Source: Ruminococcus sp. (GTDB taxonomy: Bacteria > Bacillota > Clostridia > Oscillospirales > Ruminococcaceae). From it: DNA of 32,000 nucleotides. A model generated the notes under the pieces. The model was given only the letters and a program-made list of their open reading frames with translations, was not told the DNA's origin and searched no databases. Of this stretch, positions 11,835 through 32,000 are shown in pieces (position 1 is the first letter of the stretch; the number at the start of each line of letters is the position of its first letter). Made by a program: the position numbers and the translations under genes. The stretch is taken from assembly GCA_017475555.1 (NCBI GenBank), contig JAFVFL010000046.1:138676-170675 (forward strand), in the 5' to 3' direction.

Positions 11835-13559
11835 ATGACAAGGAAAAACAAGCTCGTCCGGACAGGTCTGTCTGCGGTATCTGCGGCTGCTCTGCTCATG
11901 ACCGCTTCAGGTATCTCCGCTCCGCTGAGTGTCGGAACTGCAAATGCTGCACCTGATGAGTACCATGACGACTGGCTTCACGTAAATGAAAATGCCGAGA
12001 TCGTCGATATGAACGGAGATCCGGTATGGCTCACCGGCTGCAACTGGTTCGGCTACAACGTTACGACCCAGGTGTTTGACGGCGTCTGGTCAAGAAATAT
12101 GCACGAGATGCTTAACGAAATGGCTGACCACGGATTCAATTTACTCCGTGTACCAATGTCCACCCAGATACTTCTGCAATGGATGAACGGCGACCCTGAC
12201 CCGTATAAGGTCAAGGTCAACGAGTGGAAGAATCCGGAGCTTACAGTCGAGGGTATTGAGGGAGGTACAATCAAGTACAGCTTTGACATCTGGAATCAGG
12301 CTGTTGAGTGGTGCAGAGAAAACGGCATAAAGATAATGATAGATATACACTGTGCCACGACCGCTTCTAACGGACACCAGTACCCACTCTGGTATGACAG
12401 CAACTACTCCACAGATGACTGGCTGACGGCACTTGCATGGGTCGCTGATTACTACAAGGACGATGATACTATCATCGCTATCGACCTGAAAAACGAGCCG
12501 CACGGCAAGAATGACGGACAGGGCATGGCGAAGTGGGACGATTCAACTGATGAAAACAACTGGCGTTATGCGGCTGAGCAGGGTGCAGCGGCTGTCCTTG
12601 AAAAAAATCCGAACCTGCTCATCATGGTCGAGGGCATTGAGGTATATCCAAAGTTCGACGAGGGCGGAACGTGGGATTCTCAGCCTGTTGACTACTCACG
12701 TTATCCGTGGAGTCCGTTCTATGGTGCATGGTGGGGCGGAAACTTCCGTGGTGCAAGGGATTACCCTGTAGACCTCGGCGAGTATCAGAGTCAGCTTGTG
12801 TACTCTCCGCACGATTACGGCCCTCTTGTGTGGGAGCAGGACTGGTTCAAGAAGGACTTCACCCGTGAGACACTGCTTGAGGACTACTGGTACGACACAT
12901 GGGCATATCTTATCGAGGAGAATATCTCTCCACTACTCATGGGCGAATGGGGCGGCTTTATCGACGAGGAGCATGACCCGACCGGTGACAATACAAAGTG
13001 GCTGACTATCCTGCGTGACTACATGATAGAGAAGCATATCCACCATACGTTCTGGTGCTTCAACGAGAACTCCGGCGATACCGGCGGATTGCTGACAAAT
13101 GATTTCCAGGACTGGGACGTTGATAAGTATGAGCTTGTAAAGCCTGCACTCTGGCAGACGAATGACGGAAAATTCATCAGTCTTGACCATACTATCCCCC
13201 TTGGACAGAGCGGAAACGGCATTTCCCTTTCGGATTACTACGGCGGCACTGTGACCCAGCCGACAACTACAGCCGTGCCGGTCACCACGACTACAGAAGC
13301 TGCGGCTTCTGCTGAGACGACAACGATCTCCGGCTCTCAGGATAGTATGGGTGACGCAAACTGCGACAGCAAGGTGAATATGGCTGACGCTGTAGCGGTA
13401 TTGCAGAATCTTGCCAACAGCTCGAAATATTCTCTCTCTGAGCAGGGTGAAAAGAATGCTGACTGCGACGGAAGTTCAGGTCTGACCGGGAATGACGCTA
13501 TCACGATACTACGTGTAGAAGCAGGAGAGATAAAGCAGACTGATCTCCCCCTGAAATAA
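11835..13559 (+). CDS. GH5 endoglucanase (cellulase) with C-terminal type-I dockerin
   Basis: ATG 11835 follows AGAGAGGGAAA. Signal peptide is MTRKNKLVRTGLSAVSAAALLMTASG. The acid/base context is IAIDLKNEPHG and the nucleophile context is LMGEWGG. A Thr-rich linker precedes the dockerin GDANCDSKVNMADAVAVLQ...NADCDGSSGLTGNDAITIL. Confidence 0.88.
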   Translation: MTRKNKLVRTGLSAVSAAALLMTASGISAPLSVGTANAAPDEYHDDWLHVNENAEIVDMNGDPVWLTGCNWFGYNVTTQVFDGVWSRNMHEMLNEMADHGFNLLRVPMSTQILLQWMNGDPDPYKVKVNEWKNPELTVEGIEGGTIKYSFDIWNQAVEWCRENGIKIMIDIHCATTASNGHQYPLWYDSNYSTDDWLTALAWVADYYKDDDTIIAIDLKNEPHGKNDGQGMAKWDDSTDENNWRYAAEQGAAAVLEKNPNLLIMVEGIEVYPKFDEGGTWDSQPVDYSRYPWSPFYGAWWGGNFRGARDYPVDLGEYQSQLVYSPHDYGPLVWEQDWFKKDFTRETLLEDYWYDTWAYLIEENISPLLMGEWGGFIDEEHDPTGDNTKWLTILRDYMIEKHIHHTFWCFNENSGDTGGLLTNDFQDWDVDKYELVKPALWQTNDGKFISLDHTIPLGQSGNGISLSDYYGGTVTQPTTTAVPVTTTTEAAASAETTTISGSQDSMGDANCDSKVNMADAVAVLQNLANSSKYSLSEQGEKNADCDGSSGLTGNDAITILRVEAGEIKQTDLPLK

Positions 13560-14311: not shown

Positions 14312-15490
14312 ATGAATGATTTTCAGTTTTACAGCCCGACCGAATTTGTATTCGGCAAGGATACAGAAGCACAGGTCGGTACACTCGTGAAAAAGCACGG
14401 CGGCACCAAAGTGCTGCTGCATTACGGCGGACAGTCGGCGATCAGAAGCGGCTTGCTCGACAGAGTAAAGCGATCGCTTTCCGAGAAGGATATCCCCTTC
14501 GCTGAGCTCGGCGGCGTGAAGCCGAATCCAAGAGATACGCTTGTTTATGAGGGCATTGAGCTTTGCCGCAGGGAGAATGTGGATTTCCTGCTTGCTGTCG
14601 GCGGCGGCTCGGTCATAGACTCGGCAAAGGCGATCGCAATGGGAGTTCCGTATGAGGGAGATTTCTGGGACTTCTACTCCGGCAAAAGCCCTGCGGCAGC
14701 ATTACCGGTCGGCACGGTGCTGACGATCGCCGCAGCAGGCAGTGAGGGTTCCGGCGATTCTGTCATCACAAAGGAGGACGGAGGTCTGAAACGAGGTGCA
14801 GGCTCCGATCTTATCCGCCCGAAATTCTCTGTTCTTGACCCGGCACTGACCTGCACTCTGCCGCCCTACCAGACAGCCTGCGGTGCGACAGACATTATGG
14901 CACACGTATTTGAGCGTTACTTCACGAATACGACCGAGGTCGAGCTGACCGACCGTCTTTGTGAGGCAGTTCTGCTGACAATGGTCAGGGAAACACCCCG
15001 TGTCATTACTGAGCCGGACAATTATCAGGCACGTGCCAACATCATGTGGGCTGGCACGGTCGCACATACCAACATTGTCGGTGTCGGCAGAGATCAGGAC
15101 TGGAACAGCCACGGCATTGAGCATGAGCTGTCGGCACTCTACGATTGTGCCCACGGTGCGGGACTTGCTGTGATAATGCCGGCATGGATGGAGTTTGTGT
15201 ACAAGCATGATCCGCTGCGGTTTGCACAGGCAGCCGTCCGGGTCTGGGGCTGTCAGATGGATTTTGAAAACCCGGAGGTCACGGCATTGGAGGGGATCAG
15301 ACGATTCCGTCAGTTCCTGCACAGCATCGGAATGCCTGTCAATTTCGCAGAGCTTGGTGCACAGGAGGAGGACATTCCCCGGCTTGTTGAGAAGCACGGT
15401 GTCGGCACCGGAAAAACCGGCGGATTTGTGGCACTCTCGGCTGAGGATATTGCAGAAATATATCGTATCGCAGCAAGGGCAAGTGTATGA
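14312..15490 (+). CDS. Iron-containing (group III) alcohol dehydrogenase, butanol-dehydrogenase/YqhD-like
   Basis: Motifs AVGGGSVIDSAKAIA and the His cluster HGIEHELSALYDCAHGAGLA. RBS is ATGGAGGAACA. Confidence 0.88.
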   Translation: MNDFQFYSPTEFVFGKDTEAQVGTLVKKHGGTKVLLHYGGQSAIRSGLLDRVKRSLSEKDIPFAELGGVKPNPRDTLVYEGIELCRRENVDFLLAVGGGSVIDSAKAIAMGVPYEGDFWDFYSGKSPAAALPVGTVLTIAAAGSEGSGDSVITKEDGGLKRGAGSDLIRPKFSVLDPALTCTLPPYQTACGATDIMAHVFERYFTNTTEVELTDRLCEAVLLTMVRETPRVITEPDNYQARANIMWAGTVAHTNIVGVGRDQDWNSHGIEHELSALYDCAHGAGLAVIMPAWMEFVYKHDPLRFAQAAVRVWGCQMDFENPEVTALEGIRRFRQFLHSIGMPVNFAELGAQEEDIPRLVEKHGVGTGKTGGFVALSAEDIAEIYRIAARASV

Positions 15491-16165: not shown

Positions 16166-17977
16166 TTAATCCTCCTCGTCCGTGGTCGATAACGCTCCAA
16201 ATAGCTCGTCAAATTTTCTTTCTAATTCTCGTCTTATTTTATCTGCCGGATCAGTTTCGTACTGCTTTTTTGTTGATGATAACAGGCTTTTGAATTCTGC
16301 AAGAGCCTCATCTCCGTCAGGGAGAAGGCTGATTGCTGAGATAACTGCATCATCGTTCAATTCTTCCGAAAACTGTATGGCTTCCTTCAATTCGGATTCT
16401 GTGCAGTCTTTTTCTTTCATTTTGTAATTATAAGCTAATATCTGCTCTAAGTATTCAGTGCCGATCTCAAGGTCATCTGAGTCATCCTCGCTTGCACGTA
16501 GAAATGGACAGCGGCGTTGACCACGCTTGATCTCGTTGTAGATGTTCACAAAATCCAACATGGAGAAATTCCTGAACTTCTTCTCCGGCTGTTCTGCGAA
16601 AATATCCGTTTTGAACATTTCATAGCTGTCAATATCCTGCAATCGTGCCATAAATGGGTAATTTCTTCCGGATAATACCAGAGCCTCTACATAGCCCCAC
16701 TCCTTTTTTAAACGCTGTAGTTCAGGAACTGATATCAAAGGCATACACCCGCTCGCAGTGTTTTTACTGCCGCATAGCTGAGAGATCTCATTCAGCAAAG
16801 GCAATTCCTTGCTGTTCAGAAAGATCCAATCGTTGCAGTTTGCCTTGATAATTGATGCACCTGTAGCTCCATATTTATTCTCCAACTGCAAGAGACTTTG
16901 TGCGATAAGGATATATCTGATATTTCTGCTTCTGGCGGCAGCGATCGCATTGCAAAAGCTGGAGATCTCTGGTATATTTCCAAATTCATCAAGAACAAAG
17001 TTTACACGAAGAGGAAGCCGGAGATCGTCTTCTTTCTGTGCTTCATGAATCAATGATTCATATAGCTGCTTGAGAAATGTGGTAACAAGGAAATAATACG
17101 TATTCTTTTCGTCCGAAAGGATAAGATATACTATGCTCTTTTTTCTGCCAACACTATTCAGATCAAAGGTGGTTTCTCCCATCATTTTCTGGAGACGCTT
17201 ATTGCAGAAGAATTGCTGAACCATCGCAGTAAGGCTTGACTGGGTGGATCTGCGGGTCCTTTCGGGTTCACCGAATATACAACGATAGCTCATACCAGCT
17301 ATGGTGGATTGATCCATCATTTGACTAAGCTCCTCAAGCTTTTCAAAATTCTGCTCAAATGAAAGAGTCGTAAAGCTTGAGATATTTGCTTCTTTACGAT
17401 CGGCTACCTTCATCAGGAACAGCATATTCGCAACGCCAAATGTTTGTGCCGTCTGCCACCAAAACGGATCTACTCCACGGGCATTTTTCTGAGAAGCACT
17501 GATCGATTCAATAAAGTCGTTGATCATCTCGATCGCTTCATCCTTCCGCCCGTTGTGATATGCGTCCCAGATCGGGGTCAGCGGATTATAGCCCTCACCA
17601 TAGCTGAAGTCACGGAAGTTCAGAACAAGGACCTCGTATCCCATTTTTTTTGCTGCGTCAGCTGTATGAGCATAGATCTCACCTTTGGGATCTGTGCAGA
17701 CTACGGATTCTCCGGTACGCAGAGCCATATTAACAAACGGAAAGACACAGGTCCTTGTTTTTTTGGAGCCTGTCGATCCGAAAATCAATGTATGGTCATC
17801 CCCATTGTTGACATACACTGTGTCGCCGTCACGGTAAAGCGGGATACCACAGGCAGGGTAACTTTCCTGTGTAAGGTCTACAGCAGTATTGCTCATGCAA
17901 ATATCATCTGCTGATGCCCAATGGCTCTCCGACTGAGGCGGCAGAAATTTCCGATATTTATAGGCGTACTGTTGCAT
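16166..17977 (-). CDS. VirD4/TraG/TraD-like type IV coupling protein ATPase homolog, soluble (no TM segment), with an acidic C-terminal tail
   Basis: P-loop HTLIFGSTGSKKTRT, then VVCTDPKGE. The Walker B/TraG-D_C block is NFVLDEFGNIPE...AAARSRNIRYILIAQSLLQLENKYG...NCNDWIFL. The start is either ATG 17977 (AAAGGAGAG 6 nt upstream, 1 nt after the upstream TGA) or ATG 17998. Confidence 0.8.
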   Translation of the reverse strand: MQQYAYKYRKFLPPQSESHWASADDICMSNTAVDLTQESYPACGIPLYRDGDTVYVNNGDDHTLIFGSTGSKKTRTCVFPFVNMALRTGESVVCTDPKGEIYAHTADAAKKMGYEVLVLNFRDFSYGEGYNPLTPIWDAYHNGRKDEAIEMINDFIESISASQKNARGVDPFWWQTAQTFGVANMLFLMKVADRKEANISSFTTLSFEQNFEKLEELSQMMDQSTIAGMSYRCIFGEPERTRRSTQSSLTAMVQQFFCNKRLQKMMGETTFDLNSVGRKKSIVYLILSDEKNTYYFLVTTFLKQLYESLIHEAQKEDDLRLPLRVNFVLDEFGNIPEISSFCNAIAAARSRNIRYILIAQSLLQLENKYGATGASIIKANCNDWIFLNSKELPLLNEISQLCGSKNTASGCMPLISVPELQRLKKEWGYVEALVLSGRNYPFMARLQDIDSYEMFKTDIFAEQPEKKFRNFSMLDFVNIYNEIKRGQRRCPFLRASEDDSDDLEIGTEYLEQILAYNYKMKEKDCTESELKEAIQFSEELNDDAVISAISLLPDGDEALAEFKSLLSSTKKQYETDPADKIRRELERKFDELFGALSTTDEED

Positions 17978-17978
17978 A

Positions 17979-18473
17979 TCACTCTCTCCTTTCGTCATCA
18001 GGAATCATATCATCCCGTGCTATGTAATGTACTTCAAAATACTCCTCCAGCTTTTCCTTCATTGCGGTATAACGACATTCGCAAGGAACAGTAAACACAT
18101 AACGGATATGCTTTTGGTGGTCATACAAATACGCCAGAAAAGCATCAAGATATTCTGACGGTTCACTGCCGACCCACTGAGAAAGGTTGATAACTGATAC
18201 ACCTTTGAATGCTCCCTGCGTTCCTGTGTGCTCGTCAAGCTCCCATATATAGCGACTTAGTTCTTCAAAGTGTTCCGGCGGTTCACAATAACGCAGACTG
18301 AATATAAACGGATCAGATTTAGAATCTACACAGCTTCCGACAAGTGATGATAATGTTTGGAATTGCATTGCTTCGTGTAATTCCAGCAGCAGGACACCGG
18401 ACGCCCATGACTTGAGCGTAGTGTTTTCCGCATGGATACAGGCAGATATGGGTTCATTAAGATTCATCGCCAT
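17979..18473 (-). CDS. Hypothetical 164-aa cytoplasmic protein, first gene of the T4CP-like/ClpP operon
   Basis: ATG 18473 has AAAGGAGAG 7 nt upstream. No TM segment and no motif I recognise. The stop is coupled to the next gene's start. Confidence 0.6.
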   Translation of the reverse strand: MAMNLNEPISACIHAENTTLKSWASGVLLLELHEAMQFQTLSSLVGSCVDSKSDPFIFSLRYCEPPEHFEELSRYIWELDEHTGTQGAFKGVSVINLSQWVGSEPSEYLDAFLAYLYDHQKHIRYVFTVPCECRYTAMKEKLEEYFEVHYIARDDMIPDDERRE

Positions 18474-18521: not shown

Positions 18522-18550
18522 TATAATAACAGACCTGTAAATAAAAGTCA
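18522..18550 (-). promoter_or_regulatory. sigma70-type promoter for the three-gene operon
   Basis: Minus strand reads TTGACT (18550..18545), a 17-nt spacer, then TATTAT (18527..18522). An overlapping TATAAT lies 3 nt further on. Confidence 0.45.
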
Positions 18551-18700
18551 AGAAGTAAAATGAAAATTTCATAAGATTATCACATTCCAAATGAGATTAT
18601 TAAAAAATCAGGGCTATGCCTCCTGTACACACGGTCACTGAGGACACAGCTCTGTTTTTCGCAAGGCTATTCAATTAGTTTTAATCTTCTTTCAGCCCCT

Positions 18701-20122: not shown

Positions 20123-21054
20123 GTGGATTCCGACGGTGCCGCAAAAGCACAGGATACGATGGTTTCGAGAATACTGGAATATGTGCGGGGCATTGCAGAG
20201 GTCAGAAATTTCGATCTGTTCGGCAAAAGTATCACGAATGTCGATGCTGCAATCGACGATTTCATAACATACAGTACGCATATGGAGACACATATGAGAT
20301 CGCAATGTTCCTGTTGAGCACTTTGAATAAGCTCTCCGGCGTGGTGATGATGCTGATGAGCATTGCATTTTATCTGAACGGTTCGATGAGCCTTGTTTAT
20401 GCGGTTATGATGATTATATGCTCATTTATGATTTTCGAGTCGCTCGACCAGGTCGGTGCATTCAACGGACTGATCAGAACGATCGAAAACTGTGTGGATA
20501 AGGCGAATGAGGCACTTTCCTCCCCTACAATGGATATTGACGGCAAGGAGATCACGCCGGAAAGCATGACCTTGACGGTGAGAAATGTTGATTTTTCCTA
20601 TGATACAAAGAAGATCATCGACGGCGTTTCGTTTGAGATTCCGGAGCGTACAACAATCGCATTTGTCGGGCCCTCCGGCGGAGGAAAGACGACTATCACA
20701 CAGCTTCTTGCTCGGTTCTGGGACGTGGACAGCGGACAGATTTTGCTCGGCGGAACTGACATTCGGGAGTACAGCTATGACAGCATTCTGGACGAGGCGA
20801 CGGCGAATGTTGACCCGGAAAATGAAAATCTGCTGATGAAAGCAGTCGAATCACTCACAAAGAAAAAGACGGTCATTATGATCGCACACCGGCTGAAAAC
20901 AGTCGAAACTGCAGACCAAATCTTTGTGATCGACCGCGGAAAGATCGTGCAGTGCGGAAAGCATGACGAGCTGATGAAGGAGGACGGAATCTACAGACGC
21001 TTCATCGGCGAGAGAAAGGAAGCCGCAGGCTGGAAGATCGGCAGCCGTGACTGA
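20123..21054 (+). pseudogene. ABC exporter (CydC/CydD-like) remnant: 5'-truncated, frameshifted, with an in-frame deletion of the Q-loop-to-signature region of the NBD
   Basis: Frame 1 (20123..20317) reads AKAQDTMVSRILEYVRGIAEVRNFDLFGKS, a late TMD segment. It switches frame near 20300 to ...VRNVDFSYDTKKIIDGVSFEIPERTTIAFVGPSGGGKTTITQLLARFWDVDSGQILLGGTDIREYSYDSI-LDEATANVD.... Only 31 aa separate Walker A from Walker B, and no LSGGQ is present. Confidence 0.8.
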
Positions 21055-24897: not shown

Positions 24898-25350
24898 TCA
24901 GACCGATAACGGTCCTGAATTCATAAAGCGTCTTTGCAGCGGAGAAAGCTCAAAATGTATCTGACATACATCTGCGGCAGGGATAATCGTTCCGTCTGTG
25001 AATTTCAGCTTGCCCTCTGCCTCATCGAAAAATCTGAAGTTTCCCGTATAAGTAACATATGCACCGCCTGGCTTGTGAGAATCAGGCTTGAAATAGACAA
25101 TAGCCACCCTCGGACGCTCAGTTTCCATTTCAATGAGCTGTGCGAACGCTGCATTCAGTGTTGCAAGCTCGTCCTCCGTCATTTCCTCACGGCTGTCGGT
25201 CAGCCGGGCTGCTTCGCCTACTTCCTCATCATAGCCCGTAAGAGCAGCGAAGGGTGAAAATTGTGCCGCCCTGCTCCACATGGACAAGGGCTGATGTTTC
25301 TTCATCCTGTAACGCTCATGGCTGCGGATATCATCGTACTTACCCTGCAT
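24898..25350 (-). CDS. YolD-like protein (accessory factor of Y-family polymerases)
   Basis: Lies directly downstream of the Y-family polymerase. The pattern ...MWSRAAQFSPFAALTGYDEEV...EMTEDELATLNAAFAQL...VAIVYFKP...G...FDEAEGKLKFTDGTIIPAADVCQI matches the YolD-family layout. Confidence 0.6.
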   Translation of the reverse strand: MQGKYDDIRSHERYRMKKHQPLSMWSRAAQFSPFAALTGYDEEVGEAARLTDSREEMTEDELATLNAAFAQLIEMETERPRVAIVYFKPDSHKPGGAYVTYTGNFRFFDEAEGKLKFTDGTIIPAADVCQIHFELSPLQRRFMNSGPLSV

Positions 25351-25441
25351 AGCGGCAGCCCTTTACTTCATTTTTCAGCTTCAATGTTCTTTCAAAAGCA
25401 ATATTCACATTGCCGTTATCATAGGGAATTGCAATTCTCAT
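25340..25441 (-). CDS. Small ORF (33 aa) between the polymerase and the yolD-like gene
   Basis: Manual translation gives MRIAIPYDNGNVNIAFERTLKLKNEVKGCRYAG*. GGAGG lies 7 nt upstream. It starts 16 nt after the polymerase stop and overlaps the yolD-like start by 11 nt. Confidence 0.35.
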   Translation of the reverse strand: MRIAIPYDNGNVNIAFERTLKLKNEVKGCRYAG

Positions 25442-25456
25442 ACTACTACCTCCATA

Positions 25457-26932
25457 TTATGCCTTATGTCCTCCGACCTGCCCGTTTCGTTCTCTGGTGG
25501 TCGCACCCTCCTGAAAATTCAAGCCTTTCAGTATGGCGTTCTTTCCGAATCTGTCCTTGATATGCAGCATTGCCTCCTGCAAGCTGTGTTCCCGTTTCAA
25601 GGCAGTTTCCTCCTGCTCACGCTGCCGCTCAAGTGCCTCCACATCATCAAACAGACTGTACTGCAATACTTCTTCCTTTGCCTCACTTGCCGGAACAATA
25701 TGATTTGCCACCACATACATACGCCGCACAAGCAGCTTATCATCAACGATTCGATCGTACAGCTCCATTGCCTTCTCCACAATAATTTTGGTAGATGAGG
25801 TCTGCCGTCCGAGATTTATCGAACCGTGAGCCTGCTTCGGAATTTTCTTGCCATAGCGGTCTGTTTTGAGTTCTCCGTTATAATCTCCCGGAATGCCGGT
25901 GTGGTCATAGCCGACCGTCAGCACGATCTGGTCAGTAACAAGCCCCTTTCGCACCAAGTCCAGCACAAGCAGCTCCGTCATCTCCCGGACAATTATCCGC
26001 CCCTTGTCAAATGTGTATGGACATGAAAGCACCTGTCCCTGACTGAGACTGCGGCTTTTTGGCTTGTATGACTTTATTGCACTGATCGGACACGGCTCAT
26101 ATCCCCATGCGTGGTCGATTATAAGCTCCGCATTCACTCCGAATGCCTTGAAAAGTTCATCTTCACCACTCTCTGAATACCTCGCAATGTCTCCCATTGT
26201 GTACAGTCCGAGTTTTGCAAGCCGGTTAGCATTACCGGTGCTGATACGCCAGAAGTCCGTTATAGGCGTATGATCCCACAGCTTGTCACGGAATGACATC
26301 TCGTCAAGCTCCGCAATGCGTACTCCGTCCTCATCAGCAGGCATTTTCTTCGCCACAATATCCATTGCAATTTTGGCAAGGTACAGATTCGTACCGATAC
26401 CTGCGGTCGCAGTGATACCCGTTTCCTTCAGCACATCACGTATCAGCTTTATTGCAAGCTCATGTGCCGTACAGTGATAGGTATTCAGATAGCCTGTCAC
26501 ATCAATGAACACCTCATCAATGGAGTATACGTGTATATCCTCCGGTGCGATATACCGCAGATATATCTCATAAATTTTCGTGCTGACCTTCATATAGTGT
26601 GCCATTTGCGGAGGTGCAATGATAAAATCCAGCTTCAATGACGGGTCACGGTCAAGCTCCGATGCATAGCAGGAGCTGTCTGTAAACTCGTGATATGGCT
26701 CATTCCGCAGCCGTTCCTCGTTTATTTCCCTGACCTTCTGAATGACCTCAAACAATCTCGGTCTGCCGGGGATTCCATATCGTTTCAGGGACGGTGTGAC
26801 CGCAAGACAAATCGTCTTTTCTGTACGGCTCTCGTCAGCCACAACAAGATTCGTATTCAAAGGCTCAAGCCCACGCTCCACACACTCCACCGAAGCATAA
26901 AACGATTTAAGGTCGATACAAATACACTGCAT
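25457..26932 (-). CDS. Y-family (translesion) DNA polymerase, UmuC/UvrX/DinB-like
   Basis: N-terminal ICIDLKSFYASVECV and catalytic YSIDEVFIDVTGY. Start is ATG 26932 or TTG 26947. Confidence 0.85.
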   Translation of the reverse strand: MQCICIDLKSFYASVECVERGLEPLNTNLVVADESRTEKTICLAVTPSLKRYGIPGRPRLFEVIQKVREINEERLRNEPYHEFTDSSCYASELDRDPSLKLDFIIAPPQMAHYMKVSTKIYEIYLRYIAPEDIHVYSIDEVFIDVTGYLNTYHCTAHELAIKLIRDVLKETGITATAGIGTNLYLAKIAMDIVAKKMPADEDGVRIAELDEMSFRDKLWDHTPITDFWRISTGNANRLAKLGLYTMGDIARYSESGEDELFKAFGVNAELIIDHAWGYEPCPISAIKSYKPKSRSLSQGQVLSCPYTFDKGRIIVREMTELLVLDLVRKGLVTDQIVLTVGYDHTGIPGDYNGELKTDRYGKKIPKQAHGSINLGRQTSSTKIIVEKAMELYDRIVDDKLLVRRMYVVANHIVPASEAKEEVLQYSLFDDVEALERQREQEETALKREHSLQEAMLHIKDRFGKNAILKGLNFQEGATTRERNGQVGGHKA

Positions 26933-26937
26933 AACAT

Positions 26938-27501
26938 TCACAACCAATCAGAATCGTAATCTCCGAGATAGCCACTAAGAAAACTGCTGTCAGGCTCATA
27001 TGGAAGCTCCGGCACATCATAGCCCTCTTCCTCCATAATTTCCAGCTTGTATGCAAGCAGCTCATACGGAACATTGTGAGCAGCAGCGATCTGAAACAGC
27101 GTCAGCTCCGAATATCGCATTTCATGATAAAGGTCATCGCTATCTCCAAGCAGCAGCTCCGCAGCAAAAATATTAGCCTCTTTCTCCATAACACCCGAAT
27201 TGTCGAATAGTCCATAATCAGTAAACTGCTTACATCTACTTGCATGAAGAACAGCATGACCAAGCTCATGAGCAAGAATAAAGGTCATGATAATATCGGG
27301 AAGATTCTCATTTACCACGATATTTTTGATTCGCCTGTAAACGATCATCATCGCCTTTATGGAAGTATCCTCTGTTCCCATATCATCATAGATAAGATTG
27401 ATGCCGCACTCCATACAGAGCCTTTCCGGATCCGATGTGCCGTATTTTCTGACAAGTCCTTTGACCTTGCGACATATTTCCTGAATTGAATAGCTCAACA
27501 T
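26938..27501 (-). CDS. ImmA/IrrE family metallo-endopeptidase
   Basis: HEXXH in ILAHELGHAVLH, downstream EKEANIFAAELL. It lies directly after an XRE repressor gene. Confidence 0.8.
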   Translation of the reverse strand: MLSYSIQEICRKVKGLVRKYGTSDPERLCMECGINLIYDDMGTEDTSIKAMMIVYRRIKNIVVNENLPDIIMTFILAHELGHAVLHASRCKQFTDYGLFDNSGVMEKEANIFAAELLLGDSDDLYHEMRYSELTLFQIAAAHNVPYELLAYKLEIMEEEGYDVPELPYEPDSSFLSGYLGDYDSDWL

Positions 27502-27522
27502 CTGCCGCTTAACACCTCGATC

Positions 27523-27954
27523 TCACTGTTTTTTCCTGCCGAATTTCTCCCTTGCGATCTCTCTGGACTCGTTATACACTCTGGTCAGTGCTTTGAAATA
27601 TGAGTCCTTTTCCTCCTGCGAAAGCTCGCCGCCTGCAAAGAGAGCTGCATTTTCTGCAAGCATTCGCTCTAAATCCCTTGCACCCGATGTGCCATAGCTG
27701 TCTTGTGCATCTTCGATAAAAGGATCTTTCTCAATGTCCTCCGTGGGATTCTCACATTCTTCATCCTTCAGATACTTAATTGAGACATGAAGTGCCTTTG
27801 CAAGCCGATAGATCGTCTTATCTCTCGGAAACTTCTCCCCCATTTCATATGCTGCAATGGAGCGTTTCGATACACCGACCTGCTCTCCAAGCTCCCCCTG
27901 AGACACTCCAAGCACACATCGTGCTTCCTTTATTTTTTCAGGAAATGTCTTCAT
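27523..27954 (-). CDS. XRE-family HTH transcriptional repressor (ImmR/CI-like)
   Basis: N-terminal HTH is IKEARCVLGVSQGELGEQVGVSKRSIAAYEMGEKFP. GGAGG lies 9 nt upstream of ATG 27954. Confidence 0.85.
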   Translation of the reverse strand: MKTFPEKIKEARCVLGVSQGELGEQVGVSKRSIAAYEMGEKFPRDKTIYRLAKALHVSIKYLKDEECENPTEDIEKDPFIEDAQDSYGTSGARDLERMLAENAALFAGGELSQEEKDSYFKALTRVYNESREIAREKFGRKKQ

Positions 27955-27987
27955 TATTTTTTCCTCCTAAAAATATTCAAAACCGTC

Positions 27988-28016
27988 TTGACACTAAGGA
28001 ACATATGTGCTATACC
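27988..28016 (+). promoter_or_regulatory. Divergent (rightward) promoter opposite the repressor gene
   Basis: TTGACA (27988..27993), a 17-nt spacer, then TGcTATACC (-10 at 28011..28016). Confidence 0.45.
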
Positions 28017-28021
28017 ACGAA

Positions 28022-28040
28022 TGAACTTTAGTGAACTTTA
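28022..28040 (+). repeat. Tandem direct repeat TGAACTTTA x2, candidate operator
   Basis: tgaacttta occurs at 28022..28030 and 28032..28040, immediately downstream of the rightward -10. Confidence 0.4.
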
Positions 28041-28234
28041 TCTGTATTATATCACAGCTTTCAGTGCTTGTCAAGACCTGAGTGCAAAATTTTTGCGAGG
28101 GAATATTACGCCCTCAGCCGTGAGAATACGGAGCTGACAGGAGTTATGAGAATGGCAAATATGAGCAGACTGAGCCGCTCGGCTTTAACTTCGTTACGCT
28201 CGGTCTGTCTGATGTACTCCTCGACCCTGAGTCT

Positions 28235-29002
28235 ATGGAGGTATTTATCCCCAATACTGGTCAGTCCGTCAATCTCAACGAGCCGTCTGCAACGCTGAAT
28301 GGCAGCGATGAGGAGCGTGCTCAGTGGATAAAGGGCGAGCATGGCTACTTTGCCGGGAGCATCTCTACAGGCGGTTCAGGTGGTGGAAAATCTGCAAAAG
28401 CTGTTGACAGTTCCGGAAAAAGTGCTATAATAAAAGGTAGAGGGAGCGGCACAGGTTCGACTATTTCTGATGAACATACCTACGAAAAAATAGGTACGAT
28501 TGATATCGATGACAACGAGGCTGTTGCAGGTTGTCTTTCCGAATTTGAGAGTAAATACAGCGACAGTGACATTGAGCATTGTCGGGTGATTTGTACTAAT
28601 GGCGATGTATACGAAATTCATGGTGATAGATACACCGTTGATACTTCACTTCTTGGCGAAAGAATGAATGGAAGTATTAATGAACATAATCACGTTACAA
28701 GTGAAAGTCAATACTCTTTTAGTTGGGAAGATATTGATTCATCTGCAAAAGATTTTTCTCATATCACTATGGCATATGATGAAAAATATCGTTATTCTAT
28801 GATATTCCCGGAAAAGCCGATTGATACCGATATGCTGCGTGAAGCTTATGATATTTCAGAAAATGAAGTTATGCTTATAAATTACAATTATCAGTATTAT
28901 TCAATTGGCAGCAAAATTTCTGATGAAGATTATCAGCATGAAGTGATTAAAAGAACTTGTGAAAGGGTAGGTGTTAAATATGAAAGAAAACCCAAGACGT
29001 AA
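28235..29002 (+). CDS. Hypothetical protein, probably a 5'-truncated/chimeric ORF with a Gly/Ser linker and an AT-rich C-terminal domain
   Basis: The frame is open from 28124 (EYGADRSYENGKYEQTEPLGFNFVTLGLSDVLLDPES-MEVF...), but the first start codon is ATG 28235 and it has no clear RBS. A linker STGGSGGGKSAKAVDSSGKSAIIKGRGSGTGS is present. G+C drops sharply after about 28400. Confidence 0.45.
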   Translation: MEVFIPNTGQSVNLNEPSATLNGSDEERAQWIKGEHGYFAGSISTGGSGGGKSAKAVDSSGKSAIIKGRGSGTGSTISDEHTYEKIGTIDIDDNEAVAGCLSEFESKYSDSDIEHCRVICTNGDVYEIHGDRYTVDTSLLGERMNGSINEHNHVTSESQYSFSWEDIDSSAKDFSHITMAYDEKYRYSMIFPEKPIDTDMLREAYDISENEVMLINYNYQYYSIGSKISDEDYQHEVIKRTCERVGVKYERKPKT

Positions 29003-29183
29003 AGAATACTTACAAAAGGGCAAGGACTTATTTGATGCATACCAAGCTGAACACAGAGCTTTTATGGAACGAAGGCGAGATAAAACAATGCTTGACAAAG
29101 GCGTTAATGAAGAAAATGAAATGAGAAGACGCTACAATGAAAAAGTCAAGGCGTTAGCTGAAGAATACCGAGATGTATCATAA
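28980..29183 (+). CDS. Small charged helical protein (67 aa)
   Basis: ATG 28980 follows AAAGGGTAGGTG and overlaps the end of the previous ORF. Sequence reads MKENPRRKEYLQKGKDLFDAYQAEHRAFMERRRDK.... Confidence 0.4.
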   Translation: MKENPRRKEYLQKGKDLFDAYQAEHRAFMERRRDKTMLDKGVNEENEMRRRYNEKVKALAEEYRDVS

Positions 29184-29195
29184 AGTTTATAGCAT

Positions 29196-29269
29196 ACAGC
29201 ATGGAGCAAGCCGGAAATGCCGTGGGCGGAAGTCCTCAAAGTAAGCAGGTTCAATTCCTGCCTGTTGTA
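29196..29269 (+). ncRNA. tRNA-like element / degenerate tRNA with a non-canonical anticodon arm
   Basis: A 74-nt cloverleaf-sized segment. Acceptor acagcat/ctgttgt pairs at 6 of 7 positions. The D-arm has A14 and G18G19 (agccGGaaa). The T-arm gcagg-TTCAATT-cctgc (29245..29261) is perfect. The anticodon stem pairs at only 3 of 5 positions in register. An alternative fold is gggc-GGAA-gtcc. Confidence 0.35.
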
Positions 29270-29293
29270 TGTTGACATAATTGCATATGCGAG

Positions 29294-29319
29294 AAAACCG
29301 CCCAACACGGCGGTTTTTT
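29294..29319 (+). terminator. Rho-independent terminator after the tRNA-like element
   Basis: aaaaccgcc caacac ggcggtttttt. Confidence 0.6.
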
Positions 29320-29350
29320 CATACCCGACCGCAGAAAGAGGTGAGACGGA

Positions 29351-31060
29351 GTGGAGGGGATAAGCGGCAGCCGGGCATATGAATATGCGAAATGGTGTAC
29401 AGAGCCGGGCAACGGATATGTCGGAGCGTACATAAAGCGGCAGGCTGAAAAATGGCTGAAAATAGCGGACGGACGCTCCGATACCGCCTATGTTGACGAA
29501 AGGCAGTACACCTTGATCGCACGGCTTTTACGCCTTATGAAGCACCCTGACCTCGGCTGCACGATGTACGACGGGCTTGAGGACTACGCTATGCTCTTCA
29601 TCACCGCCCTGTTCTGCACCCGGTTCCGCACCGATAATATCCGCTTCTACCACACGGGAGTGCTGGAAATAGGCAGAAAGAATTACAAGACCTTTTCCTC
29701 CGCTGTTATATTTATCATTGGTCTGCTGACTGAACCACGGTTCAGCCGGTTTTTTTCTGTCGCACCGGACTTGAAGCTGTCCAGCGAATTGCAGGTCGCT
29801 ATCAAGAAAATAATCAAGTCCAGCCCTGCTCTTGCTGACGAAAAAATATTCAAGCTCATGCGTAAGGAAATACGCTGCAAGCTCACAGAATCGGAATTTA
29901 CGCCGCTCGCTTACTCCAACGACCGCATGGACGGAAAGCTTGCGGCTATGTTTTTAGCTGACGAATGCGGTGCCCTCACCGACAACTACCCGATAGAGGC
30001 AATGCGTTCCTCGCAGATAACCCTCCGGGAGAAGCTCGGTATCATCATTTCCACGCAGTACCCGAACGACAAAAACGCCATGACTGAGGAGATCGCCGCT
30101 GCAAAGCAAAGCCTTGACGGGCTTGGCGGGAGCGACAGGTGCTTCGCTCTGCTCTATGAGCCTGACGAAAGGTACAAAAGCGGTGACTCCTGGAAAACTG
30201 AGGATATCGCCATTTATCAGGCGAATCCGGCAGCAGTCCGGGACAGTCATCTTTTTGAGGCTCTGCTCGAAAAACGGAAAATGGCTGTGATGTACGAGAA
30301 CCGCCGGAAGAATTTCCTCTGCAAGCACATGAATATCCAGTACACCGGGCTTGGCACTGAGGGATTTATAGACCTTAACAAGGTACGGCTGTGCAGCTTT
30401 GAGAACGGAAATGCCCCGGAATTCTGGCAGGGCAGGCGTGTTTACTTAGGGCTTGACCTGTCGCTGACGGAGGACAACACCTCGGTGGCAATGGTCACGC
30501 TTGAGGGGAATGATGTGTACGCTATGGTGTGGGGATTTATCCCGGCTGGGCGTATAGACGAAAAATCGGAGGCTGAAAAGGTGGACTACAACGCCCTCAT
30601 TGCTGACGGCTGCTGCTTTGCCTGCGGCGATGAGGTGATCGACTACAGCTTTGTCGAGGATTTTATCCAGTCGCTCCCGGAAAAATACGGAGTGGAGATA
30701 GTTCAGCTCGGCTTCGACAGGTGGAATGCAATGTCTACGGTGCAGAAGCTTGAACGCAGCGAAAAGCCCATAGAATGCGTTGAGATACGTCAGCATTCGA
30801 GTGTCCTGCACCGCCCGACAAAGCTCCTCAAGGAGCTTGTTCTGAGCCGGAAATTCCACTACGGGACGAATAAAATGCTGGAGATCAATTTTGCAAATGC
30901 ACGCTGCACTGAGGACACCAACCTGAACAAGTACGTCAACAAAAAACGCAGCACAGGCAAGGTGGATATGGTCGTTTCGCTCATCAATGCCCTGTATCTT
31001 TTACAGGTCGGTGAGCTTGACGGGCAGAATGAAATGCAGTTCGTGTGTCAGCTGATATGA
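29351..31060 (+). CDS. Phage terminase large subunit (Terminase_1/COG4626-like) with a degenerate Walker A
   Basis: GTG 29351 follows AAAGAGGTGA. The ATPase region reads VLEIGRKNYKTFS (family pattern RKNGK[ST]) with Walker B MFLADECGAL. Nuclease motifs are YLGLDLSLTEDNTSVAMV, GFDRWNA and GKVDMVVSLINAL. Confidence 0.75.
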   Translation: MEGISGSRAYEYAKWCTEPGNGYVGAYIKRQAEKWLKIADGRSDTAYVDERQYTLIARLLRLMKHPDLGCTMYDGLEDYAMLFITALFCTRFRTDNIRFYHTGVLEIGRKNYKTFSSAVIFIIGLLTEPRFSRFFSVAPDLKLSSELQVAIKKIIKSSPALADEKIFKLMRKEIRCKLTESEFTPLAYSNDRMDGKLAAMFLADECGALTDNYPIEAMRSSQITLREKLGIIISTQYPNDKNAMTEEIAAAKQSLDGLGGSDRCFALLYEPDERYKSGDSWKTEDIAIYQANPAAVRDSHLFEALLEKRKMAVMYENRRKNFLCKHMNIQYTGLGTEGFIDLNKVRLCSFENGNAPEFWQGRRVYLGLDLSLTEDNTSVAMVTLEGNDVYAMVWGFIPAGRIDEKSEAEKVDYNALIADGCCFACGDEVIDYSFVEDFIQSLPEKYGVEIVQLGFDRWNAMSTVQKLERSEKPIECVEIRQHSSVLHRPTKLLKELVLSRKFHYGTNKMLEINFANARCTEDTNLNKYVNKKRSTGKVDMVVSLINALYLLQVGELDGQNEMQFVCQLI

Positions 31061-31073
31061 GAGGTGAAAAGGA

Positions 31074-32000
31074 TTGGCTAACAAGCTCATACGTGGTCTT
31101 ACTGTCACTATCGGTGCGGATACCTCAAAGCTGTCTGCCGCCGTAAAGGAGGCAGAGGCACAGGTCAGAGGGGCGAAGACCGAGATACGTGAGATACAGT
31201 CGGCACTGTCTAAAGCCGGTGATTCTGCGGAGCTGTGGCAGCAGAAGCAGACCGTGCTCACAACGGCTATAGAGAGCAGCAAAAAGAAGCTCGATGAGCT
31301 GAAAACGGCTCAGAAAAGCCTTACGGAGCAGCTGCGTGACGGCGATATCGACCAGAAGAAATATGATGAATTCCAGGCAAAGCTCACCAAAGCCCGTGAC
31401 AAGCTCTCCGAGCTGAAAAAGCAGCAGGAGAACGTTGAAGCAGAGTTTAAGTCGGGGAGTATCGACAAGGAGGCATACGATAAATTCACCGACAAGGTAC
31501 ACCGTGCCGAGCTGAAGGTCAAAGACCTCGAAACTGCTGAGCACAGCCTTGAGGAAAATGTCAGGCTCGGCAATGTATCTGAGGAGCAATACCGTGCGTT
31601 TCAGAGAGAGATACAGCAGACCGAGGGCGATATTGCTGATAACGAGAGGAAAATTGCGGAATACAGAGCACGGCTCAGTGAGAAATACCGTGGCAGCGGG
31701 GTCGAGGACGAGCTTAATGCGGCAATAGCAGAGTTCGGTGAATTAAGTGCCGGCAATTACATGAATTACAGAAAATTCATGTCCCCCGACTGGTACAGTG
31801 AGGTATCCGGTTTTGCAGATTCAATCAACATGGATAACATATCGCTTCGTTCAGAAAAGAACCAGATCGCCCGGAATAATTACGTGATCGAGCAGTATGA
31901 AAAGGCGGAGCTGTCGGCGAACCTGATACAGGCAACGCAGGAGCAGATGACTGACGCTCAGTGGCTGCACGACCAGGGTTTTCCGGTGGGGGTGAATTAA
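31074..32000 (+). CDS. Coiled-coil protein resembling the N-terminal region of Firmicute phage tape measure proteins
   Basis: TTG 31074 follows GAGGTGA. The pattern LIRGLTVTIGADTSKLSAAVKEAE...ELWQQKQTVLTTAIESSKKKLDELK...VSEEQYRAFQREIQQTEGDI is typical of TMP N-termini. The TAA stop is at 31998..32000. Confidence 0.5.
   Translation: MANKLIRGLTVTIGADTSKLSAAVKEAEAQVRGAKTEIREIQSALSKAGDSAELWQQKQTVLTTAIESSKKKLDELKTAQKSLTEQLRDGDIDQKKYDEFQAKLTKARDKLSELKKQQENVEAEFKSGSIDKEAYDKFTDKVHRAELKVKDLETAEHSLEENVRLGNVSEEQYRAFQREIQQTEGDIADNERKIAEYRARLSEKYRGSGVEDELNAAIAEFGELSAGNYMNYRKFMSPDWYSEVSGFADSINMDNISLRSEKNQIARNNYVIEQYEKAELSANLIQATQEQMTDAQWLHDQGFPVGVN

Follow-up and report, generated by a model that had tools for sequence, protein, structure and literature searches.

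A soluble VirD4/TraG-like ATPase encoded next to a dedicated ClpP paralogue in Ruminococcus, and its relatives in Clostridia

To our knowledge, every type IV coupling protein (T4CP) studied so far acts at a secretion channel, and every known partner of the protease ClpP is an AAA+ unfoldase. Hexamers of HerA assemble with an effector enzyme and activate it in anti-phage defence. A T4CP without a transmembrane (TM) domain of its own is TraJ of pIP501; the gene immediately upstream encodes TraI, a membrane protein that recruits TraJ (PMC4981023). The closest precedent for a T4CP domain in a defence system comes from three NsnA (Menshen) proteins, which carry a T4SS-DNA_transf domain (PMC12065111). 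Clp ATPases dock on the pockets of ClpP via short, hydrophobic (V/I)G(F/L)-type motifs (PMC8182300). Here we describe a stretch of 32,000 nucleotides of Ruminococcus sp. (assembly GCA_017475555.1, contig JAFVFL010000046.1, positions 138,676 to 170,675; hereafter the window), in which a soluble VirD4/TraG-like ATPase is encoded between a small AAA+-like partner and a ClpP paralogue. Our literature search found no link of VirD4/TraG-like proteins with ClpP and no description of the soluble family, and the three-part module appears to be undescribed.

The three genes are co-oriented, nearly touch each other and are a single operon in the window (listed 5' to 3'; aa, amino acids):

17979..18473, minus strand: 164-aa partner gene, a shortened member of the upstream partner family
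16166..17977, minus strand: soluble VirD4/TraG-like ATPase, 603 aa, with the T4CP nucleotide-binding domain and all-alpha domain and no TM segment
15590..16162, minus strand: dedicated ClpP paralogue, 190 aa (Pfam CLP_protease, 1.2e-68; NCBIfam ClpP models)
16170..16177, minus strand: clpP Shine-Dalgarno sequence GAGGAGGA, embedded in the terminal E-E-D codons of the ATPase gene

The open reading frame (ORF) of the ATPase spans 16166..17998, and its likely start is the ATG at 17977. A GGAGAG Shine-Dalgarno sequence lies 8 nt upstream of this ATG, and the same start is found in the database copy P0002 and in all homologues. A longer N-terminus is impossible, because the frame is closed 7 codons above MQQYAY. 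The plus-strand reading of 16166-17977 was rejected, as it gave stops only. The TGA of the 164-aa gene lies 1 nt before the ATG of the ATPase gene. The ATPase gene in turn stops 3 nt before the ATG of clpP, as an initial annotation made from the sequence alone had already noted. The position of the clpP Shine-Dalgarno sequence inside ATPase codons implies tight or coupled translation. Moreover, since the terminal EED codons double as the ribosome-binding site of clpP, the acidic end and this site limit each other, and part of the terminal acidity of the ATPase may reflect a constraint at the DNA level.

The ATPase and its family

The ATPase matched the Pfam domains T4SS-DNA_transf (PF02534, 3.7e-42), TraG-D_C (PF12696, 2.5e-21) and TrwB_AAD_bind (PF10412, 5.9e-17), and narrowly passed the cut-off of 250 bits of the NCBIfam model NF045973 (VirD4-like, CD1115 family) with 255.5 bits (9.1e-76). 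An AlphaFold2 model calculated from an alignment of 67 sequences reached a mean predicted local distance difference test score (pLDDT) of 89.9 and a predicted template modelling score of 0.81. In a Foldseek search with this model, the top matches were Cagbeta (8dol, 6e-17), TrwB (1e9r/1gl7, ~1e-13) and DotL (6sz9), and the HerA-defence structures 8zis, 8wld and 9c1n were among the lower ones; the PADLOC models of HerA did not match the ATPase. The identification as a T4CP homologue in the initial annotation is borne out by the Pfam and Foldseek matches. The fold is that of VirD4/TrwB and not that of an AAA+ unfoldase; only the small, degenerate upstream partner is AAA+-like.

The same annotation had pointed to a missing membrane anchor and a deviant P-loop, and both observations stand. 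The highest Kyte-Doolittle mean over 19 residues was 1.01 in the whole ATPase and 0.14 within the 66-residue stretch that precedes the P-loop, and no upstream start adds TM helices. Two T4CPs named as CD1115 family by the Prokaryotic Genome Annotation Pipeline (PGAP) served as positive controls and gave maxima of 2.75 and 1.8. The 164-aa partner has no hydrophobic segment either (maximum 0.96). The nucleotide site is marked by two regions:

17756..17779, minus strand: deviant Walker A GSTGSKKT, residues 67-74, with G-x-T-G-S-K-K invariant in family alignments
16982..17002, minus strand: Walker B region NFVLDEF, residues 326-332, conserved in 67 sequences

A profile alignment pairs GSTGSKKT with GSTGSGKT of DotL, so that K72 stands in the place of the canonical Gly. 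Next to the Walker Lys, such a substitution would usually be expected to weaken the binding of nucleotides, as in P-loop mutants like Ras G15A. In the 67 sequences, N326 and F332 of the Walker B region were invariant and D330 and E331 were conserved in at least 90%, while A347, R349, S350, R351, N352 and R354 in and around the AARSRN motif were all invariant. The conservation of Walker B and AARSRN argues for selection on the ATPase site in spite of its unusual P-loop, and the strict conservation of the two Lys residues suggests an altered, perhaps switch-like nucleotide cycle rather than loss of function.

These features extend far beyond the window. A search of 5.8 billion proteins returned more than 1,300 clusters, mostly of ~487-aa proteins from metagenome-assembled genomes of Clostridia, and relatives occurred in 533 species genomes of the GTDB species set, mostly of gut and rumen Clostridia. 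G-x-T-G-S-K-K was invariant in every family alignment, and no aligned member had a hydrophobic N-terminus. The initial annotation had asked whether GSKKT marks a subfamily, and GxTGSKK[TS] is a defining loop of a large soluble family in Clostridia. For 168 loci, the sequences that were complete at the N-terminus were compared. Of 130 TM-less homologues, 126 had a Walker A of the xKK form, whereas GSGKT was found in all 17 sequences of a TM-bearing sister clade that were caught by the P-loop pattern; further members of that clade had GSTGAGKT on inspection. In the metagenome scan, a single-protein query gave no relatives, and an alignment query reached the next lineage out, consisting of ~700-aa proteins with two N-terminal TM helices and 33-38% identity. 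In a maximum-likelihood tree, all soluble KK sequences grouped as a single clade with the TM clade as its sister (SH-like approximate likelihood ratio test 94), and the PGAP-named members of NF045973 that we examined fell in another clade than the window ATPase. Loss of the TM helices, the GxTGSKK[TS] loop and an upstream, degenerate AAA+ partner resembling CbbX co-vary across the family. Being family-wide, these features are far beyond chance and are not peculiarities of one protein.

The family also shows no tie to conjugation. Matches to VirB4, VirB6, PrgI, PcfB or MobP3 were found in the flanks of none of the 126 soluble loci, and in 10 of the 38 loci of the remaining class (mostly of the TM clade), of which the flanks were equally short. 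The genome from which the window derives, with an estimated completeness of 100%, contained no VirB4 match, no AAA_10 match above the cut-off and no PF03432 relaxase. Its only two PF02534 genes both encode soluble proteins and both adjoin a ClpP paralogue. Among 72,556 plasmids in PLSDB there was no family member closer than 30% identity. A phage origin was considered and rejected, as IMG/VR and INPHARED held nothing closer than 35% identity. We did not find an orthologue in 24 sampled genomes of the same genus, which indicates that the operon is accessory and probably acquired. The family-level features and the conclusion that the family is not conjugative can be stated with high confidence, and the best explanation of the core formed by partner and ATPase is an accessory module that is horizontally scattered in Clostridia.

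ClpP, the upstream partner and the surroundings of the operon

ClpP was encoded directly downstream of the ATPase in 13 loci, i.e. the window and loci L005, L007, L019, L029, L034, L042, L053, L055, L067, L224, L226 and L227. The window ClpP has the catalytic Ser-His-Asp residues and is 50-53% identical to the housekeeping ClpP encoded on contig C1 of the same genome. The 13 linked ClpPs formed one clade (support 100/99), outside the housekeeping ClpPs of 30 genomes that represent most families of the order and are 67-77% identical to the genome's own housekeeping copy. A single clade of linked ClpPs implies that ClpP was captured once and has stayed with the ATPase family. The ClpPs of the window clade keep the catalytic Asp. 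In the ClpPs of L019, L029, L034, L042, L053 and L067, the catalytic Asp is replaced by Asn (DRNNW versus DRDYW), with Ser and His kept. We dropped a 'two-residue deletion' in the linked ClpPs as evidence, since it is a mere indel relative to the housekeeping ClpPs of the order. Matches to PHROG profiles raised the option of a prophage head-maturation protease, which was rejected because NCBIfam ClpP models scored far higher, capsid genes were absent from adjacent positions and the clade is of the cellular ClpP type.

The same genome contains a second pair. On contig C29 (L193:4286-6462, minus strand), a gene for another ClpP paralogue (219 aa) is followed directly by one for a second soluble T4CP-like ATPase (P0124 family, 506 aa), with asnB, pyrB and alaS around the pair. 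This ATPase has a canonical GPSGAGKT loop and a hyper-acidic tail ending in DDDGVPF, and is ~25% identical to the window ATPase. Its five closest relatives, from other genera, are ~430-440 aa long and mostly short-tailed, and have a ClpP-like gene immediately upstream. The pairing of ATPase and ClpP was thus present in 6 of 6 loci of the C29 type, with ClpPs that form a clade of their own (99/95), and in none of the loci with ~600-aa T4CPs from the same search. With two separate soluble VirD4-like lineages, each accompanied by its own ClpP lineage, a functional relation between ATPase and ClpP is the most economical explanation. Judged from gene order and phylogeny, we consider this functional link probable. 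The conserved adjacency and the dedicated ClpP clade lend indirect support to a putative physical complex of the two proteins.

Further FtsK-superfamily candidates were noticed near ClpP-family genes. The clusters at L005 and L007, the two long contigs closest to the window, encode a further HerA/TrwB-like ATPase of 438-444 aa (L005:12785-14101 and L007:4886-6220; PADLOC mad8, 1.6e-16), located directly after ClpP in L005. Contig C34 of the window's genome carries a distant fourth ClpP-family gene (13010-13516; 243-aa ORF), possibly TepA- or SppA-like, ~1.7 kb upstream of a 913-aa ORF with a weak AAA_10 match (15198-15362). This ORF may encode a protein of the FtsK/SpoIIIE type; if so, C34 would be the third neighbourhood of ClpP-family and FtsK-superfamily genes in one genome.

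Neither the conservation and AAA+ fold of the upstream partner nor the variability of the third gene was noted in the initial annotation. With tblastn, most soluble loci were found to encode a homologue of the partner immediately before the ATPase, usually with a length of ~285 aa. The AlphaFold2 model of the 283-aa partner from L010 (pLDDT 90.5) has an AAA+ fold, with CbbX (3syk) as the best Foldseek match, followed by clamp-loader delta, RuvB and ClpX. At the Walker A Lys position, partners have K, R or N, and in many of them Walker B is degraded, so that the partner looks from its sequence like a pseudo-ATPase or an adaptor. A motif of the form [ILVM]G[FLI], a ClpX-like tripeptide of the kind that Clp ATPases use for docking on ClpP (PMC8182300), was present in the last 14 residues of 76 out of 88 distinct partners, compared to a background of 0.9% of internal windows, and often provided the final residues (SLGF-stop or KIGF-stop, e.g. 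in L010:9129-9980, L013:5066-5923 and L022:5120-5986). Most loci with such a partner have no dedicated ClpP; there, the housekeeping ClpP or the T4CP-like ring might be what the motif docks on. The partner in the window gave no match in Pfam, NCBIfam or PADLOC or in a PDB sequence-profile search. Of the AAA+ alpha/beta domain it retains the core in the centre, while the lid domain and the C-terminal [ILVM]G[FLI] are missing. A 157-aa partner that is shortened in the same way and has the same DERR end is encoded in L224, the closest relative linked to ClpP. Recurrence of the short form in an intact operon indicates a trait of the lineage rather than a wreck.

The third position of the module is variable. 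Instead of ClpP, it can be occupied by a helical protein of 287 aa (in 17 loci), a TPR protein, a small helix-turn-helix (HTH) protein, a pair of YbjN-like proteins, a large AAA protein with a repeat of the partner domain, or a 415-aa CARF-PD-(D/E)xK nuclease (PADLOC CARF4, 1.7e-32; Pfam Card1_endonuc). This Card1/Can2-like nuclease was seen at L012:6905-8164 and in about 12 other loci, as the alternative or an additional third gene, and L034 and L055 encode it alongside ClpP, an HTH protein and two YbjN-like proteins. The flanks of the loci with the CARF nuclease showed neither a cyclase nor Cas10.

The C-terminus of the ATPase had been described initially as an acidic, helical tail of about 130 aa. 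It is indeed acidic, and helical in the AlphaFold2 model; its length, however, is 111 aa:

16169..16501, minus strand: C-terminal extension, residues 493-603, a predicted five-helix domain with net charge -19
16196..16213, minus strand: FDELFG motif at residues 589-594, ahead of the acidic end ALSTTDEED (family alignment)

The 111 residues after CPF (490-492), the last conserved core motif, include 32 Asp and Glu versus 13 Lys and Arg, which gives the net charge of -19 and an isoelectric point of 4.1. The model contains five helices over residues 495-597, with block-mean pLDDT values of 73-95 between residues 501 and 590, and the last five residues, with the short acidic end DEED, are disordered. 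The extension is therefore predicted to fold into a small domain of helices that ends in a short acidic stretch, rather than to be a floppy acidic tail. A Pfam search with the tail alone returned no domain. Similarity to the separate downstream proteins of other loci was absent, and the idea that the tail is a fused copy of them was rejected. The initial annotation had also asked whether this P-loop and tail are common in bona fide T4CPs. GSKKT occurred in none of those we examined: the two examples of the CD1115 family and every readable sequence of the TM-bearing sister clade had G[SA]GKT. An acidic C-terminus was present in both examples of the CD1115 family, so an acidic C-terminus alone is not distinctive.

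Tail length ranges from 0 to ~290 aa across the family. Tails of at least 30 aa were found in 9 of 10 distinct ClpP-linked proteins versus 27 of 95 others (Fisher p ~2e-4), and the motif L[FY]G in 6 of 10 versus 10 of 95 (Fisher p ~7e-4), although both p-values are inflated by kinship among the sequences. ELERKFDELFG is conserved in P0003-P0006, P0011 and P0030, with LEELFG in P0013, and every examined member of the window clade with ELERKFDELFG has ClpP. The tail motif reads LFG (residues 592-594), not in the G-F order of (V/I)G(F/L). An FDELFG tail as a trait confined to ClpP-linked proteins was rejected, as it is also present in basal members without ClpP. Proteins of the C29 type, which keep their ClpP, mostly have no tails, which also speaks against the tail as a dock. 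We consider the tail a doubtful candidate for the ClpP dock; it may bind ClpP, the partner or a substrate.

The 164-aa gene is preceded by a gap of 227 nt with a putative promoter, the best-scoring site of the region (10 of 12 matches and an extended -10 TG), which likely marks the start of the three-gene operon:

18523..18551, minus strand: putative sigma-70-like promoter (TTGACT, 17 nt, TG-TATTAT), identified by its match to the consensus

The flanking genes are ordinary chromosomal genes, as expected in a cellulolytic organism of the Clostridium type, encoding a glycoside hydrolase family 5 cellulase, a metallo-beta-lactamase-type hydrolase, an iron-containing alcohol dehydrogenase, an alpha/beta hydrolase and a CotH-dockerin protein. 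The GC content of the operon is slightly below that of the left flank. A gene at 20305-21054 on the plus strand, i.e. 1.8 kb from the operon on the opposite strand, encodes a 249-aa ABC-type ATPase with an N-terminal hydrophobic region that matched the PADLOC model mad3 (5.7e-19) of the methylation-associated defence system. The right end of the window (24898-32000) is a block of mobile-element or prophage genes, with the start of the prophage near 27.5 kb:

25457-26947: Y-family polymerase
26938-27501: IrrE/M78 peptidase
27523-27954: cI-type HTH protein
29351-31060: large terminase

As the CotH-dockerin gene lies between this block and the operon, the operon is probably outside the prophage block.

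Possible functions of the module

A non-conjugative conflict module that combines an ATPase with a protease is the best explanation we can offer for the operon, and we rate its chances as even. According to this explanation, the lineage would have branched from TM-anchored Firmicutes T4CPs of the CD1115 type, lost the anchor and fixed the Gly-to-Lys change in Walker A. The ATPase would then have become tied to an upstream CbbX-type AAA+-fold partner, as a two-gene core that recruits a variable third component. The T4CP-like protein would form a TrwB-like hexamer, of which the substrate-receptor and translocase features would engage a cytoplasmic target, either an invading DNA-protein complex or a protein, with the partner as adaptor or trigger. 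The ATPase would hand the target to the ClpP barrel and not to a secretion channel, or it would gate the barrel, with a 6:7 symmetry mismatch as in ClpXP. Candidate contacts are the helical C-terminal domain with FDELFG and its acidic end and, in other lineages, the IGF-like motif of the partner. Hexamer formation, ATPase activity with the KK loop, contact with ClpP and a role in defence are all conjectural elements of this scheme.

T4CPs are specialised for relaxase-DNA complexes and secretion substrates, which makes invading DNA-linked proteins attractive candidate targets. Genes near the family loci encode TIR-domain proteins, nuclease-toxin domains (GH-E and Endonuclea_NS_2), CHAP domains and giant proteins of the TPR/Sel1 type. 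A fixed ATPase core, swappable enzymes and a patchy distribution are the usual signature of conflict systems. A role in conflict or defence (anti-phage or anti-plasmid) rather than in housekeeping proteolysis is nevertheless a tentative assignment, to which we give slightly less than an even chance. In its most specific form, a VirD4-class, non-AAA+ hexamer would be docked on a private ClpP tetradecamer, feeding or gating it, and the two would make up a new class of ATP-dependent protease that captures and destroys the DNA-linked proteins of incoming conjugative elements or phages. The trigger would be the extra Walker A Lys together with the pseudo-AAA+ partner and its ClpX-like IGF end. As a complete scheme, this version is somewhat unlikely.

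Several observations weigh against a conflict module built on ATPase and ClpP. About 85% of the sampled family loci have no adjacent ClpP, which makes ClpP an optional add-on rather than the core function. FDELFG also occurs in L022, L150, L160 and L191, all without adjacent ClpP, and the ClpP-linked L019 has a tail of only 6 aa, so that the tail is neither a proven nor a necessary dock. The window partner has no IGF-like end. Given the Gly-to-Lys change, the ATPase may be a slow switch or a non-hydrolysing scaffold, not a motor. The defence-island signal is anecdotal and qualitative; no PADLOC model matched the ATPase beyond a weak mad8 hit (2.7e-9), none matched the partner or ClpP, and PHROGs searches with the ATPase and the partner gave nothing informative. 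Finally, the association counts come from related sequences, which overstates their independence.

The presence of two soluble T4CP-like/ClpP pairs in one genome, one of them among the housekeeping genes asnB, pyrB and alaS, together with a dedicated and intact ClpP lineage, would also suit a protease for ordinary physiology (regulated proteolysis, stress or sporulation-type development) in which the T4CP-like ring serves as another kind of unfoldase or adaptor; specialised paralogues of ClpP are found in many bacteria. The patchy distribution with no orthologue in 24 congeners, the slightly lower GC content of the operon than of its left flank, the replacement of the third gene by CARF-nuclease, TPR or HTH genes and the variable neighbourhoods rich in toxin and TIR genes argue otherwise, and we regard a physiological role as unlikely. 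The possibility that the KK loop marks a dead pseudo-ATPase, which would serve as a static scaffold or as a sensor that binds DNA or protein, follows from the damage normally caused by substitution of the Gly before the Walker Lys. The partner would be inactive too, in line with its varying Walker A Lys (K/R/N) and its truncation in the window, and nothing would be translocated at the expense of ATP. However, GxTGSKK[TS] is invariant and not decaying, and the Walker B DE, the AARSRN Arg and many core residues are conserved among sequences ~42-45% identical to the query, a pattern typical of a working, if altered, nucleotide site; a dead enzyme is therefore quite unlikely.

The relation between ATPase and ClpP could also be reversed, with ClpP (together with ClpX or ClpC) controlling a toxic or signalling ATPase, of which the acidic C-terminus would be a degron or substrate mimic, in the manner of toxin-antitoxin systems. 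The substrate-mimic idea was already part of the initial annotation and fits the disordered acidic peptide at the end of the tail and the correlation of tail length with ClpP adjacency, and tight translational coupling would set the stoichiometry. Yet ClpP alone cannot degrade folded proteins without an unfoldase (PMC8182300), a private, co-evolving ClpP clade exceeds what a degron needs since housekeeping ClpP would suffice, and pairs of the C29 type keep ClpP mostly without long tails. We consider control by degradation improbable. A genuine conjugative coupling protein in two parts, in which the 164-aa protein recruits the ATPase to a type IV secretion system (T4SS) encoded elsewhere, has a functional counterpart in TraJ/TraI of pIP501 (PMC4981023), and the passed CD1115 cut-off, the conserved upstream partner and the acidic C-termini of real T4CPs agree with it. 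This option is contradicted by a partner that is a soluble AAA+-fold protein with no hydrophobic segment, by the lack of a match to VirB4, AAA_10 (above the cut-off) or a relaxase in the genome and of conjugation genes in the flanks of all 126 soluble loci, and by the identity of only ~30% to true CD1115 members with no closer relative than 30% in PLSDB. It is very improbable.

If the ATPase and ClpP truly cooperate, they would represent a new class of motor in regulated proteolysis and a new fate for the substrates of coupling proteins. The variable effectors, ClpP and the CARF nuclease among them, make the module a candidate for a new defence system, and the invariant GxTGSKK[TS] loop offers a natural experiment on the Walker A glycine. 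Furthermore, members of the family are annotated as 'conjugative DNA transfer protein', a label that inflates counts of conjugative elements in metagenomes.

Comparison with described systems

The CD1115 family (NF045973) shares with the window ATPase the core of nucleotide-binding and all-alpha domains, the TraG-D_C block, a juxtamembrane-type [ST]RWA motif near the N-terminus and the acidic C-terminus. The two examples that we compared, WP_044798567 (Bacillus thuringiensis pBMB68) and WP_007037036 (a Monoglobus record listed as a plasmid), are ~30% identical to it. In contrast to the window ATPase, both have two N-terminal TM helices and a GTTGSGKT or GGSGSGKT loop. The genes of both examples are flanked by genes for a relaxase (MobP3) or PcfB and for VirB6, PrgI and VirB4, whereas the window ATPase gene is not.

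TrwB of R388, Cagbeta of Helicobacter pylori and DotL resemble the ATPase in structure (Foldseek E-values of 6e-17 to 2e-9; TM-scores of 0.6-0.74 on the target). They form a hexameric ring with a central channel, and the same assembly is expected for the window ATPase. They differ by an identity of only 12-16%, by their work at the membrane and with a T4SS, and by a canonical Walker A; we know of none among them that works with a protease. The system of pIP501 is similar in that a TM-less T4CP-like protein is preceded immediately by a second gene. However, its TraI is membrane-associated and belongs to a complete tra operon, whereas the partner described here is a soluble AAA+-fold protein, tra genes are absent and ClpP follows.

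Complexes of ClpX, ClpA, ClpC or ClpE with ClpP likewise place a hexameric P-loop ATPase beside ClpP, the hexamer being a prediction for the window ATPase. Their docking motifs can be compared with the C-terminal [ILVM]G[FLI] of most partners, which the window partner lacks, and with the LFG or LYG of the tails. In contrast, the window ATPase is of the FtsK-HerA/VirD4 class, and its tail reads L-F-G rather than G-F. The SIR2-HerA and DUF4297-HerA systems also unite a hexamer of the FtsK-HerA superfamily with an effector, and swap effectors in a modular fashion. The module described here differs from them in using the VirD4 branch of the superfamily, in having ClpP as the effector and in adding an AAA+-like third partner.

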